From Nitrospinia bacterium (lineage in GTDB: Bacteria > Nitrospinota > Nitrospinia > Nitrospinales > JAJDAT01), in the NCBI GenBank assembly GCA_029261715.1, contig JAJDAT010000016.1:301885-365884 (forward strand): DNA of 64,000 nt. The letters are read 5' to 3'. The translations under genes and the position numbers were made by a program. How positions within the stretch are numbered: the stretch's first letter is position 1; the number at the start of each line of letters is the position of its first letter. Shown in pieces: positions 8,343 through 12,670 of this stretch. The notes under the pieces are model-generated. The model had not been told where the DNA came from. It made no database searches and worked only from the letters and a program-made list of their open reading frames with translations.

Positions 8343-9005
8343 CTACTTGAGTTCTTTATAAACCTTAAGAATGGAAATTAAAATTAGGATTGGGGACACT
8401 AATGAATAAAGAAGATAGAGCGGCTTTACAAAAGAAAACAAGGTGGCCAGCGAAACGGTAGTAACAACCATGCTGGTGAATCCAAAGTAAAACTTCTTTG
8501 AAAGGGCGTATTGAGGGTTTTTATTTAACGCTTCTGAAGACTGCTTAAGAGTCCAAGCTCTAGCGGACGTCAAAAACCCAACCAAAATAATTCCTACGGC
8601 CCCAGTTAATCCCAAAACAAAAAAATCTTCATCCATTTTGGAATAACCGATTACAACTCCAACGTGTACGACAGCGTAACAAACAGAGTCTAAAACACAA
8701 TCCATCCATGCTCCGAACTCACTGCTCATTTTTTTTGCTCGAGACAAATCGCCGTCCACTAAATCCAGCACAAAGGAAGCCTGAAGAAAAAGTACTCCAA
8801 TTAAAAAAGAGTTTGAAGTTCCAAGAGAGTATGAAAAACCCGATATAACGGCTAATAAAAAAGATACAAGAGTTACTTGGTTAGGCGTAGCGCGAGTTTC
8901 CGCAAGTACGGATACAATAGGCCATGAAAAAAGATTCCTATAGGAATAAATAATAATATCGTCTTTTCCTTTAGCGCACGCTTCTTTGACTTGTTTGTAC
9001 TTCAC
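8343..9005 (-). CDS. CDP-alcohol phosphatidyltransferase family protein (small, about 6 TM helices)
   Basis: The family signature D-x2-DG-x2-(A/S)R-x8-G-x3-D-x3-D is present as DLVDGDLSRAKKMSSEFGAWMDCVLD. The rest of the protein is hydrophobic. Confidence 0.8.
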   Translation of the reverse strand: MKYKQVKEACAKGKDDIIIYSYRNLFSWPIVSVLAETRATPNQVTLVSFLLAVISGFSYSLGTSNSFLIGVLFLQASFVLDLVDGDLSRAKKMSSEFGAWMDCVLDSVCYAVVHVGVVIGYSKMDEDFFVLGLTGAVGIILVGFLTSARAWTLKQSSEALNKNPQYALSKKFYFGFTSMVVTTVSLATLFSFVKPLYLLYSLVSPILILISILKVYKELK

Positions 9006-9057
9006 CGTTCTAAATCTCTTTCAATCAGGGGTTAAATTAATTTTTTCGTATTTTACT

Positions 9058-10197
9058 TCAGTAGATATTGGTCAAAATTTGACTGATATCTTTATAACTC
9101 AATTCAACCGGATTGTTTTTCATTCTATCCGGATTGACACTCTCCTGGACGATGGTTTCAAGATCGCTTTCCTTCAAATCCAAATCTCTCAATCTGATTG
9201 GGAGCCCAATAGACTGCATTAGTTTTGGCATATCTTTAACAAAAGATTCTAAAGAATCGGAATCAAACGCTTCCACAATTTGCTGAATTTTTTGCGGGAT
9301 CGCTTGGTTATTGAATTGAATAACCTCTTTTAAAGTAATGCTAACAGCTAGTCCATGAGGAATATCAAAATGAATTGTCATGGGGTAGGAAATTGAGTGG
9401 CATGCCGCTGTTTTAGTATTATTAAAAGCAAGGCCTGCAAATAAACTGGCCAGCGACATATTGGTGCGAGCTTCAAGATTATCCGGTTCGTTGTATGCTG
9501 TAGTTATGTTTTTTCTAATCAATCGTATGGCGTGTAAAGCAAAAGCGTCTGAGATGGGTTGCGAACTCTTTGACCAACAAGACTCAATAGCATGAGTCAT
9601 GGCGTCTAGGCCGGTAACTGCGGTAGTTTGAGGCGGCATATGAACTGTTAACTGTGGGTCAATGATCGCATAATCGGGGAACATCCAGGGATGGCTTAAA
9701 GAAAATTTCTTTTTCTGCTCCATATCCCATAGGGTTGCCCAACAAGTCACTTCACTAGCAGTTCCAGAAGTCGTGGGAATTGCAATAAACGGAAGGGGCT
9801 TATTCTCCAAAGATTTTTTTCCCGAAAGGTAATCCTCTAACGGTTCATGGTTCGTTGCCATTGCGGCTAGAATCTTCCCAGCATCCAAGACACTCCCACC
9901 TCCTAAGCTGATTACCAACTCAGCCTCCGAAGCTTTCAAGAACTGGATCGCCTGTTGAAGATCGTCGACAGTCGGGTTGGGCTTTATCTGGTCAAAAATG
10001 TACAAACTCTTGTCGTAAAGCATCCGTTTACAAACATCGACATACCCGAAACGACGCATCGATGAAAGACCGGTAACCAACAATATTTTTTTAGGAATGT
10101 TTAATTCGAGGACGTATTTTTTAAGAGATTCAAACGCATGAACCCCAAAGACAATTTTGGTAGGGCTTAGGTACTTCCAAGTTTCATCAAGCCTCAT
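9058..10197 (-). CDS. Iron-containing (group III) alcohol dehydrogenase; candidate phosphonoacetaldehyde-reductase-type enzyme
   Basis: GGGSVLDAGK nucleotide-binding motif, DAMTHAIE, and CHSISYPMTIHFDIPHGLA metal-binding His cluster. It overlaps the upstream ORF by 4 nt (10194-10197). Confidence 0.85.
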   Translation of the reverse strand: MRLDETWKYLSPTKIVFGVHAFESLKKYVLELNIPKKILLVTGLSSMRRFGYVDVCKRMLYDKSLYIFDQIKPNPTVDDLQQAIQFLKASEAELVISLGGGSVLDAGKILAAMATNHEPLEDYLSGKKSLENKPLPFIAIPTTSGTASEVTCWATLWDMEQKKKFSLSHPWMFPDYAIIDPQLTVHMPPQTTAVTGLDAMTHAIESCWSKSSQPISDAFALHAIRLIRKNITTAYNEPDNLEARTNMSLASLFAGLAFNNTKTAACHSISYPMTIHFDIPHGLAVSITLKEVIQFNNQAIPQKIQQIVEAFDSDSLESFVKDMPKLMQSIGLPIRLRDLDLKESDLETIVQESVNPDRMKNNPVELSYKDISQILTNIY

Positions 10198-11130: not shown

Positions 11131-11826
11131 TCAATAATACTCTTCTTGGTCATTAATAATCCGGGATGCATTGTCGGCAGATATAAGATTCAATTCTTGA
11201 CGCGCGTCTCCAGAAGCCAAAGACTGGCCAAATGTGATGGCTAAAATTCTTCCTAAATTAGCTGGATCGGGCGACCAGAAACCGTGAGGCACAAAACCTG
11301 GTATTAACCAGGAATCACCCTCTTGAAACTCTTCATAATGCGTTTCGCCTTCTCCAATCCAAACAAAACCTACAGGTCCTCCATGTAACACTTGAGTGTA
11401 TTGATGAAAAAAATGACCCCGGTTTAAAACAACATCTTCTTTCTCAGTCAAATGGAGTAATAGTTCTACTGGCTTAAAGTTCGGTAAGGTCGAAGACATG
11501 GCTCGACACCAATAGGTATATTGTAGTCTTTCAGCTCGAAACTGATCCATTTTAACGGCTTCTGAGTTCCTTAGAATGATCACGCCACGTTCTCTGTCAT
11601 CATCCATTGGCAGCAAATCACGAACGCTAACATGAAATTCTTTAGCCAGTTTTTCTAGCTCTTCCCATGTAGGTTTCTGATAACCCTTTTCAAGCTCGGA
11701 CAATCTATCCCGCGCAATACCAGTATTTTGAGACACCATTGCGTGTGTATATTTAATCTCATTCCGCCAAGCATGAATCAGGGACCCATAACTTAAATAA
11801 GGTGGTGTCGCAGTTTTTGTCTCCAT
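11131..11826 (-). CDS. XRE-type HTH domain fused to a C-terminal cupin (HppE-like architecture); either an enzyme or a regulator
   Basis: The N-terminal helix-turn-helix is MVSQNTGIARDRLSELEKGYQKPTWEELEKLAKEFHVSVRDLL. The C-terminal cupin is NRGHFFHQ...GDSWLIPGFVPHGFW. Putative metal ligands are H138, Q142 and H181. Confidence 0.75.
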   Translation of the reverse strand: METKTATPPYLSYGSLIHAWRNEIKYTHAMVSQNTGIARDRLSELEKGYQKPTWEELEKLAKEFHVSVRDLLPMDDDRERGVIILRNSEAVKMDQFRAERLQYTYWCRAMSSTLPNFKPVELLLHLTEKEDVVLNRGHFFHQYTQVLHGGPVGFVWIGEGETHYEEFQEGDSWLIPGFVPHGFWSPDPANLGRILAITFGQSLASGDARQELNLISADNASRIINDQEEYY

Positions 11827-11896
11827 AGAAGCCTTCTCAACTTAATTAAGATTATGCAAAAAATATTCTATTGGCCTAAAGTAAAACCTTTTACAC

Positions 11897-12670
11897 TCAT
11901 AATATCATATCTTTAAAAGATTTTTTGGCGTTATTAAAATCCTCTTGAGTGTCTAATTCTTTCCACCCATTCTGAATTTTTACACAGTGAACGGGAATTG
12001 AGTTGTCTACCATCTCCTGAAATAAATCCGTTAAATAAGCTTTTTTCAAACTAGGAGCTTGTTGAAAAGGACGATCTGCATACGTTATCTTACTTTGCTC
12101 ATAAGACTTTTTAAATAAGTCGGAGCCACGTGCCGTTAGCTTTAACATCCCAATAAATTCACCTGGCGCATCTTCTTTCTTTAAAGATCTGACATTCTTT
12201 CCAATTTCTTGCACAAACCCTTTTTCATCGTAAAAAGCCGACTCGGCTTCGGAAATCGGGTGAAGCTTGCGGCCAACATAATTAGCCTTCCAATTTTCAT
12301 CCACAACAACCGAGACATCCTCCTTAGAGGCTAAAAGCTTCTCAACAACAGATGTATTAAAAATGATATCGCAATACAGAATAACAACATCGCCGTGAAT
12401 CTCTTCTTTCGCATAAAAAAGAGACTCTAGAATATTGTTGTTCTCATAATCTGGGTTCATAAAAAATTGAACCCCTGGAAGTTTCAACTTATCCGCCTGG
12501 TAACCTCGGATGACAAAAATATCCTGAACTCCCGCAGCCTTCAAACAATCAATTTGAATATTGATTAGAGGCTTACCGTTTAAGGGAAGTAAACACTTCG
12601 GTTTGTCATCGGTTAACTCCCCCATTCTATTCCCCATACCTGCCGCTATTATAATTGCTTTTGAAGCCAA
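11897..12670 (-). CDS. Nucleotidyltransferase, LicC/PntC-like cytidylyltransferase family
   Basis: AIIIAAGMGNRMG...KCLLPLNGKPLI is the N-terminal NTP-transferase signature. 257 aa. TTG start preceded by an AAGGTGG Shine-Dalgarno sequence. Confidence 0.8.
   Translation of the reverse strand: MASKAIIIAAGMGNRMGELTDDKPKCLLPLNGKPLINIQIDCLKAAGVQDIFVIRGYQADKLKLPGVQFFMNPDYENNNILESLFYAKEEIHGDVVILYCDIIFNTSVVEKLLASKEDVSVVVDENWKANYVGRKLHPISEAESAFYDEKGFVQEIGKNVRSLKKEDAPGEFIGMLKLTARGSDLFKKSYEQSKITYADRPFQQAPSLKKAYLTDLFQEMVDNSIPVHCVKIQNGWKELDTQEDFNNAKKSFKDMIL

Follow-up and report, generated by a model that had tools for sequence, protein, structure and literature searches.

Methylphosphonate is the main proposed precursor of the methane formed in oxygenated ocean water, and its producers are currently counted through genes for two-module methylphosphonate synthases (MPnS) located next to pepM, the gene for phosphoenolpyruvate (PEP) mutase. 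Here we analyse a five-gene operon at positions 8343 to 12670 of a 64,000-nucleotide stretch of DNA from a Nitrospinia bacterium (contig JAJDAT010000016.1, positions 301,885 to 365,884); this whole stretch is called the window. Its products probably carry out the late steps of a pathway to a phosphonate head group derived from 2-hydroxyethylphosphonate (2-HEP), and one of them is a predicted oxygenase that corresponds to a single MPnS module.

All known phosphonate pathways start with PepM, the single exception being that of K-26, according to a 2025 paper (PMC12723261). Surveys are anchored on pepM and record ppd, pdh and mpnS only if these genes are adjacent (PMC8931226), so that clusters of the type found in the window are invisible to them. 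Phosphonoacetaldehyde is the known branch point between 2-aminoethylphosphonate (AEP) and 2-HEP (PMC8942020). Two other precedents are relevant here. Fom1 cytidylylates 2-HEP before further tailoring, which provides a precedent for CMP-2-HEP (PMC6697681), and in predicted phosphonolipid clusters of Nostoc and Burkholderia, pepM, ppd and the gene for an AEP transaminase are accompanied by hpnL and by genes for an NTP transferase and a CDP-alcohol phosphatidyltransferase (PMC5987646). Finally, the residues defining MpnS are H148, Q152, F162, I184 and H190, and the corresponding HepD set is H148, A/Q152, I/Y162, E/G184 and H190 (Lockwood et al. 2022, PMC9381506, Suppl. Table S2). In the literature searched, we found no description of a single-module MPnS, nothing relevant to a PepM-independent route and no description of Nitrospinota as phosphonate producers.

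Organization of the operon

The five genes lie on the minus strand, and the ORF listing of the window returned the coordinates, the common direction, the short gaps and the single 4-nt overlap already reported in a first-pass annotation of this DNA. In order of transcription, they encode a LicC/PntC-type nucleotidyl (probably cytidylyl) transferase (NTase; 11897..12670, 257 aa), an HTH+cupin protein (11131..11826, 231 aa), an orphan protein without family match (10194..11045, 283 aa), a group III iron-containing alcohol dehydrogenase (Fe-ADH; 9058..10197, 379 aa) and a small membrane protein of the CDP-alcohol phosphotransferase (CDP-OH transferase) family (8343..9005, 220 aa). The successive gaps are 70, 85, -4 and 52 nt, the negative value being the overlap of the orphan and Fe-ADH genes. 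We placed the NTase start at the TTG codon at 12670 because in-frame stop codons are present upstream; the CDP-OH transferase gene starts with GTG. A Pfam/NCBIfam profile search of the five proteins gave NTP_transf_3 for the NTase, HTH_3 for the cupin protein, no family for the orphan, Fe-ADH plus ADH_Fe_C for the dehydrogenase and CDP-OH_P_transf for the last protein. All the motifs quoted previously were found (AAGMGNRMG...KCLLPL, GGGSVLDAGK and DGDLSRAKKMSSEFGAWMDCVLD). The order NTase-cupin-orphan-Fe-ADH is seen again in at least four other contigs, with proteins 40-88 % identical, and the arrangement is therefore conserved and not due to chance.

The HTH+cupin protein resembles a single MPnS module

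In a phmmer search of the PDB sequences, the best match of the 231-aa protein was MPnS (6b9s; E = 1.3e-39, 29 % identity), followed by HEPD (6b9r; E = 4e-24, 19-20 % identity) and, at a distance, by HppE (E ~3e-8, 36 bits, 22 % identity). XRE regulators appeared at E = 0.006 or worse, and the only Pfam match was HTH_3 (32.9 bits). Both tandem repeats of MPnS align across the whole protein (76 and 61 bits), which indicates that it corresponds to one MPnS module. The AF2 model consists of a helical domain and a beta-barrel; when it was compared with known structures by Foldseek, ranks 1-38 were all MPnS, HppE, HEPD or Psf4 chains, with MPnS at rank 1 and a probability of 1.00 for the top matches, and the first HTH-cupin regulator (1y9q) came at rank 39 with 15 % identity. 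Thus, sequence and structure searches agree on the fold of MPnS, an alpha HTH-like domain followed by a cupin.

The active-site residues were then compared by counting along the alignment. All five published MPnS marker residues are kept, H138, Q142, F154, I175 and H181 corresponding to H148, Q152, F162, I184 and H190 of MPnS. These include the three Fe(II) ligands (H138, Q142 and H181) and, with F154 and I175, the counterparts of the second-sphere Phe162 and Ile/Val184. Moreover, K25, R97, Y105 and N135 align with MPnS K28, R102, Y110 and N145, which we take to be the phosphonate-binding residues of the HEPD and MPnS structures. Except for position 154, all these residues (H138, Q142, I175, H181, K25, R97, Y105 and N135) are invariant in 28 aligned members of the family.

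The protein shares its single module with HppE; however, the Glu of the HppE His-x3-Glu...His triad is replaced by the invariant Gln142, and this, together with an identity of only 22 %, argues that it is not an HppE. It also differs from MPnS in having one 231-aa module instead of two tandem modules (~450 aa). Since the fold, the metal ligands, the second-sphere residues and the substrate-site residues are those of MPnS and the two-module architecture is not, we regard the protein as a member of the MPnS/HEPD family with a new architecture and not as MPnS proper. As judged from its sequence, it is a single-module MPnS/HEPD homologue, predicted to act as an Fe(II)/O2-dependent 2-HEP oxygenase, rather than an XRE regulator. 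The membership in the HppE/HEPD/MPnS group proposed in the first-pass annotation is thus confirmed, with a much closer relation to MPnS than to HppE, and the single module is indeed unusual.

Gene neighbourhoods of the cupin family

A protein search revealed that the cupin protein belongs to a family of at least 165 sequence clusters, whose members have 223-250 aa, are 61-87 % identical across phyla and are called, where named, 'XRE family transcriptional regulator' or 'hypothetical protein'. The family is distributed among Omnitrophota, Planctomycetia, Actinomycetota, Gammaproteobacteria, Tara Oceans contigs and a Nitrospinota-like genome. Neighbourhoods were gathered from exact-protein look-ups and from a species-representative genome scan, and compared by tblastn and motif search; the resulting loci are designated by L numbers.

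In 12 distinct loci, from Omnitrophota, Planctomycetia, Actinomycetota, Gammaproteobacteria and unclassified metagenome-assembled genomes (MAGs), a member of the family is encoded directly beside a PEP mutase carrying the EDKxFPKxNS motif. The cupins concerned are 61-73 % identical to the window protein (73 % for L098 and 61-68 % for the eleven others). The recurrent gene order is (HTH-)NTase, cupin, PepM::NTase fusion, (Ppd) and Fe-ADH, followed by a NUDIX protein, a cytidylate-kinase-like protein and a 274-289-aa membrane protein with a marginal CDP-OH_P_transf match; the NTase-cupin pair is the one invariant gene pair. In L098, a Fom1-like CTP_transf::PepM fusion, Ppd and Fe-ADH are transcribed divergently from NTase-cupin, and, as in the window, TPR-rich proteins are encoded nearby. 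Co-encoding with pepM, ppd and pdh is seen for 12 distinct loci of the family, whereas the window and its closest relatives have the Fe-ADH only. Because the window cupin is 61-73 % identical to proteins encoded beside PepM, Ppd and Fe-ADH, its substrate is very likely 2-HEP or a derivative. The neighbours of its close relatives accordingly fit the phosphonate-related role suggested earlier for the operon.

Another informative case is L018 (10013-11356), an Acidobacteriota MAG encoding a fused 447-aa two-module protein of the MPnS type. The N-module shares 48 % identity with the window protein and retains GHFFHQYT...IPGFTPH, whereas the third His has been lost from the C-module (FTPY). The single-module family is therefore closely related to the module that is catalytic in two-module enzymes of the MPnS type. 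The two-module gene is flanked immediately upstream by an alkaline-phosphatase-superfamily gene and immediately downstream by an NTase gene.

Two variations of the PepM-linked loci were also observed. In L011, L016 and L017, the Fe-ADH gene directly follows PepM::NTase and Ppd is not detectable within +-10 kb. In L003 (8863-10014), and also in L009, L010, L016 and L017, the gene that precedes the cupin gene, and overlaps its start, encodes an NTase of 383 aa in total with an additional HTH_3 domain at the N-terminus.

The nucleotidyltransferase, the dehydrogenase and the CDP-alcohol transferase

The assignment of the first gene product as a LicC/PntC-type NTase was well founded. The protein matches Pfam NTP_transf_3 (67 bits), its sequence AAGMGNRMG conforms to the motif (A/G)xGxG(T/N)R, its best PDB sequence match is LicC (1jyk, E = 1.8e-16) and its alignment with the PntC fusion 6pd1 (E = 1.9e-7) covers the entire protein. 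In addition, each PepM-containing locus has an NTase gene immediately ahead of the cupin gene, and the NTases concerned share 40-52 % identity with that of the window.

For the Fe-ADH, identified as such on the basis of GGGSVLDAGK and confirmed by its two Pfam matches, the best NCBIfam model is the phosphonate-related TIGR03405 (Phn_Fe-ADH; 287.6 bits), and the JGI name of the members of its 90 % cluster is 'phosphonate metabolism-associated iron-containing alcohol dehydrogenase'. We predict that it is a phosphonoacetaldehyde reductase of the PhpC/FomC/Pdh type. The Fe-ADHs of the window clade share 59-88 % identity with each other versus 33-39 % with those of the PepM-Ppd clusters and form a separate ortholog group.

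The CDP-OH transferase, a predicted phosphonyl head-group transferase, scores 51.5 bits on Pfam CDP-OH_P_transf (cutoff 22). The PF01066 signature Dx2DGx2ARx8Gx3Dx3D is present and reads D-LV-DG-DL-SR-AKKMSSEF-G-AWM-D-CVL-D, with Ala replaced by Ser; the best NCBIfam matches, AIP synthase and DIPPS, are weak. Homologous transferases are found in related clusters (L013/L003 'u289', L030, L055 and L096), where they recur with or without an LPG_synthase_TM/HpnL-like partner. In L096, from Tara Oceans, the cupin, the orphan and the Fe-ADH are 70 %, 46 % and 66 % identical to those of the window, and a CDP-OH transferase gene beside an LPG_synthase_TM/HpnL-like gene lies 2 kb downstream. The L003 'u289' protein had been considered as an orphan homologue and was rejected as such, being a marginal CDP-OH transferase instead.

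The final transferase varies among the relatives. A TagF-like Glyphos_transf gene is located near the operons of L001 and L002, which are 87 % identical relatives, and directly after the Fe-ADH gene in another relative, and the Omnitrophota loci contain sulfatase or alkaline-phosphatase-superfamily genes. This variation suggests that the acceptor may be a lipid for the window operon and a polymer elsewhere. The family motif and the recurrence in phosphonate clusters thus support the earlier assignment of the CDP-alcohol transferase, but not its status as a constant partner, since TagF-like or alkaline-phosphatase-superfamily enzymes replace it in relatives.

A proposed pathway from 2-HEP

From homology, active-site residues and gene neighbourhoods, we infer the substrates, the order of the steps, the product and the acceptor as follows. 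Phosphonoacetaldehyde would be supplied from outside the operon, most simply by an unlinked pepM-ppd pair or, alternatively, through the co-translated orphan. The Fe-ADH would reduce it to 2-HEP, the reaction of PhpC, FomC and Pdh. The 231-aa oxygenase, probably homo-oligomeric like the tetrameric HppE, would bind Fe(II) through His138, Gln142 and His181 and, with O2, break 2-HEP between C1 and C2. In view of the MPnS-type Phe154 and Ile175, the products are most likely methylphosphonate and CO2, hydroxymethylphosphonate and formate being the alternative. The LicC/PntC-like NTase would then activate the phosphonate as a CMP-phosphonate; in an alternative order, it may activate 2-HEP before the oxidation, as Fom1 does in fosfomycin biosynthesis. 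Finally, the CDP-alcohol phosphotransferase would move the phosphonyl group onto a membrane alcohol acceptor, for example diacylglycerol, to form a phosphonolipid.

This scheme develops the head-group route that had been proposed for the Fe-ADH, the cupin, the NTase and the CDP-alcohol transferase, which is supported by the homology of the cupin, by the PepM-Ppd-Fe-ADH neighbours of its relatives, by the identity of the NTase and by the recurrence of CDP-OH transferases. We assign the operon to a phosphonate (2-HEP) pathway module with high confidence, and have moderate confidence in methylphosphonate as the product and a lipid as the acceptor.

Several observations weigh against the scheme. 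The cupin has one module, versus two in every characterised MPnS and HEPD, and its model is of moderate confidence (pLDDT 73). Position 154, a Phe in the window clade, is an HEPD-like Tyr in most other members of the family, so the product may differ among them. The TIGR03405 score of the Fe-ADH stays below the equivalog cutoff of 423.7. No CDP-OH transferase was found in the gap after the Fe-ADH gene of L001 and L002, and a lipid acceptor is thus not a conserved feature. Finally, neither PepM nor Ppd was found in the 64-kb window when it was scanned for the EDKx5NS motif of PepM and searched by tblastn with PepM and Ppd queries taken from related loci, and neither lies within +-10 kb in four related contigs; for the window, this agrees with the absence of pepM and ppd noted in the first-pass annotation.

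Precursor supply and the orphan family

The 283-aa protein was rightly called an orphan, having no Pfam, NCBIfam or PDB sequence match. Its AF2 model is all-alpha and confident (pLDDT 89.6, pTM 0.89), and a Foldseek search of the PDB with this model revealed no structural neighbour (best E = 1.8, TM < 0.2). A profile search of 1.84e9 (1.84 billion) representative proteins yielded 106 relatives; ten distant ones that were searched likewise had no Pfam, NCBIfam or PDB sequence match. We considered whether the orphan is a divergent PEP mutase and rejected this, given the confident all-alpha model and the lack of both an EDKx5NS motif and a Pfam PEP_mutase match.

In the window, in L001 and L002, in L019, in the P0139 contig and in L096 and L097, it is the orphan gene that lies between the cupin and Fe-ADH genes, where PepM(-Ppd) is encoded in related clusters. 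Among the cupin loci, 12 have PepM only, five the orphan only, two neither and none both (Fisher p = 0.0018, the loci not being phylogenetically independent). The orphan is a member of a family that systematically occupies the pepM position and not a random insert.

When metagenomes were scanned with the distant branch of the orphan family, 75 loci were obtained. Of the 37 loci L021-L057, 29 have a split TPP decarboxylase (split Ppd) encoded immediately next to the orphan-like gene. The summed halves of this decarboxylase pass the phosphonopyruvate decarboxylase cutoff and score nearly equally on sulfopyruvate decarboxylase models, and one alpha subunit passes the sulfopyruvate decarboxylase cutoff. 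An AepZ/PhnW-type transaminase (346 bits, cutoff 360.8) or an Fe-ADH is often present, as are NTases, CDP-OH transferases and HpnL-like, PhnA-like or alkaline-phosphatase-superfamily proteins (e.g. L021:7794-12707, L055:8048-12999, L039:8726-12964 and L052:754-7915, the last of which additionally holds a two-module MPnS/HEPD-like gene). PepM gave no tblastn match and its EDKx5NS motif no occurrence in the 333 kb of these loci, whereas the motif was found in every canonical locus. These loci resemble clusters for AEP or phosphonolipids in which a member of the orphan family stands in the place of pepM. The proteins of this branch have invariant D2, H6, D33, H40, R41, H45, H132 and D136. A soil branch, 31-38 % identical to the Ppd-linked one (L058-L095, e.g. 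L073:10001-12657 and L087:10001-12659), lies beside a VanW-like gene, a 382-415-aa gene without assigned family and a Wzy_C O-antigen ligase gene, with no phosphonate genes nearby.

The most economical explanation, and the default form of the best one, is that the operon is a branch or salvage module and the orphan an accessory protein with a tailoring, scaffolding or hydrolytic role. Phosphonoacetaldehyde made elsewhere, by an unlinked pepM-ppd(-aepZ) AEP cluster or from imported AEP through a PhnW transaminase, would be diverted into the 2-HEP/methylphosphonate branch. The known position of this compound as the branch point between AEP and 2-HEP is in favour of this explanation. So are two cupin clusters (L015 and L018) with neither PepM nor an orphan within 10 kb of the cupin, which show that pepM can be unlinked, and the loss, in the orphans of the window clade, of most of the invariant and putatively catalytic His and Asp residues of the distant branch. 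However, not only PepM and Ppd but also AepZ, PhnW-like and PhnA-like genes were absent from the 64-kb window by tblastn, and the tight conservation of the orphan and its translational coupling to a distinct Fe-ADH ortholog group would be left unexplained. We hold this explanation tentatively.

It is rather unlikely, by our estimate, that the orphan family itself makes the phosphonate precursor and that the operon is a complete pathway without PEP mutase. The Ppd-linked branch would then produce phosphonopyruvate, and the window branch, with its coupled Fe-ADH, phosphonoacetaldehyde or 2-HEP. The mutual exclusion of the orphan and PepM beside the cupin would be accounted for, as would the junction with a split Ppd in loci that hold the parts of AEP and phosphonolipid clusters minus pepM; the enzyme-like invariant His, Asp and Arg of the distant branch and a fold without PDB neighbour also fit. 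Yet this argument is drawn from gene context, and pepM may simply be unlinked. Moreover, the window-clade orphans with their lost residues have no Ppd beside them, the surroundings of the soil branch point to a more generic envelope-related role, and L015 and L018 lack the orphan as well as PepM. A replacement of PEP mutase by this family, whose all-alpha fold would be previously unseen, as a second and non-homologous route to the C-P bond is a doubtful prospect, to which we give slightly less weight still.

Alternative functions of the operon

A route without any C-P bond appears very unlikely. The NTase and the CDP-alcohol transferase would then act in an IPCT/DIPPS-like or Kennedy-like manner to produce an ordinary phospho-alcohol head group or solute, the phospho-alcohol being made by the Fe-ADH, for example from phosphoglycolaldehyde. 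The two proteins do match the bifunctional IPCT/DIPPS model NF041135, but with 49.5 and 57.3 bits, one tenth of its cutoff of 580. The phosphocholine enzyme LicC as the best PDB match of the NTase, the missing pepM and the almost equal scores of the split decarboxylases of distant orphan loci on sulfopyruvate and phosphonopyruvate models would also be consistent with such a route. Against it stand the cupin of L098, 73 % identical and encoded beside a Fom1-like CyTase::PepM, Ppd and Fe-ADH, the eleven further cupins with 61-68 % identity, and the AepZ/PhnW-type transaminase and PhnA-like genes of the distant orphan clusters.

That the 231-aa protein is an XRE-family ligand-sensing regulator of the operon and not an enzyme, as its HTH_3 match, the names of its homologues and the existence of HTH-cupin regulators such as 1y9q would have it, is hardly credible given that the residues that bind metal and substrate in MPnS/HEPD do not vary across phyla, that 61-87 % identity between phyla is atypical of a local regulator, that the HTH-like alpha domain is structural in HppE, HEPD and MPnS, that 38 phosphonate oxygenase chains precede the first regulator structure and that the same module is fused into the canonical two-module MPnS architecture in L018.

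Other features of the window

The GC content of the window is ~38 %. Upstream of the NTase gene, a sigma-70-like promoter match (TTGACC-17-TAACAT, 9/12 consensus matches) lies at 12802..12830 on the minus strand; it is weak evidence, and in the consensus scan neither promoter-like nor terminator-like sites were commoner in the window than expected from shuffled sequence. No terminator-like site was detected in the intergenic gaps of the five operon genes, and an Rfam scan of the whole 64 kb gave zero matches.

On the same strand, 169 bp downstream of the CDP-OH transferase gene, there is a Questin_oxidase-like (PF14027) gene (6941-8173), which has its own promoter-like site at 8303-8275 and was seen again only in L006, a copy of the same genome, but not in related clusters. 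A Cys-rich 106-aa ORF without family match (12899-13219, minus strand; …CDSAQECCPVEKSLEDLCCPVE…) is located 228 nt upstream of the operon, and a TetR regulator is encoded further upstream (13406-14053). On the plus strand, the window contains a 752-aa protein with an N-terminal hydrophobic segment followed by a very long, highly acidic Glu/Asp-rich low-complexity stretch (3544-5802), a TIR_2-domain protein (19303-20673) and a block of late cobalamin biosynthesis genes (20920-27343) that includes CobQ and a CobU::nitroreductase (BluB-like) fusion at 23175-24425. All named relatives found for this CobQ are from Nitrospinota (55-60 % identity), so that the source is most likely a divergent, low-GC member of this phylum. 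Several very TPR-rich proteins are also encoded (488-2431, 29026-30960 and 44869-47703).

Implications

A half-size family of the MPnS type that is labelled as XRE regulators would escape the counts of methylphosphonate producers. If the family is active, a wider range of habitats and organisms would be able to make methylphosphonate or hydroxymethylphosphonate, and the family would be a missing evolutionary link between the single-module HppE and the duplicated MPnS and HEPD. In addition, the recurrent pepM-free clusters with Ppd, an AEP transaminase or Fe-ADH, an NTase and a CDP-OH transferase always hold one conserved protein of the orphan family, which makes the question of another way to the C-P bond directly testable. 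Should this family replace PEP mutase, the route would have been missed by every pepM-anchored survey.

Comparison with known systems

The closest described enzyme is MPnS of Nitrosopumilus maritimus (6b9s/6b9t), the best sequence and structure match of the 231-aa protein, with which it shares the HTH-like alpha domain, the cupin and the five marker residues; the single-module family is also associated with nucleotidyltransferases and, in 12 loci but not in the window, with pepM-ppd-Fe-ADH. However, MPnS has ~450 aa in two tandem alpha/beta modules, only the first of which binds iron. HEPD/PhpD (6b9r, 3g7d) has the same fold and the same substrate-binding residues, and class II HEPD has Tyr at the F162 position, as do most single-module members; it differs by its two modules and by Glu or Gly at position 184, where the single-module family has an invariant, MPnS-like Ile. 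HppE/Fom4 and Psf4 (1zz6, 5u55; 190-198 aa) are the only characterised single-module members of the superfamily, and the HppE homotetramer, in which the modules complement each other, is a plausible assembly model for the 231-aa protein. Nevertheless, HppE uses a His-Glu-His triad to epoxidise 2-HPP, whereas in the window protein this Glu is replaced by Gln and the predicted reaction is the cleavage of a C-C bond of 2-HEP.

The NTase resembles PntC, LicC and the Fom1-CyTase (Rice et al. 2019, PMC6697681) in its LicC-like N-terminal motif, its full-length alignment with PntC and its location inside phosphonate clusters, and in related clusters PepM also occurs as a fusion with an NTase or CyTase domain. 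Differences are the substrate, AEP for PntC and, as predicted, methylphosphonate, hydroxymethylphosphonate or 2-HEP for the window NTase, and the extra N-terminal HTH domain present on the NTase of many relatives.

At the level of the whole cluster, the predicted phosphonolipid clusters of Nostoc and Burkholderia (Yu et al. 2013; PMC5987646 Fig. 7) likewise combine an NTP transferase and a CDP-alcohol phosphatidyltransferase with phosphonate genes, and an HpnL-like gene occurs in relatives of the window operon. In addition to pepM and ppd, they have genes for an AEP transaminase and a 2OG oxygenase, and they lead to AEP or OH-AEP head groups, whereas the window operon has an Fe-ADH, the MPnS-like oxygenase and the orphan, without pepM and ppd. 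The IPCT/DIPPS system, the CDP-inositol route to di-myo-inositol phosphate, is similar in that the donor used by a small CDP-OH transferase is a soluble CDP-alcohol formed by an NTase; it differs from the window operon, whose proteins score ~1/10 of the family cutoff and which has no inositol-phosphate synthase and stands in surroundings of the phosphonate type. By analogy, the operon may thus be likened to the MPnS branch of phosphonate biosynthesis, combined with a PntC-type nucleotidyl activation and a transfer of the phosphonolipid type.

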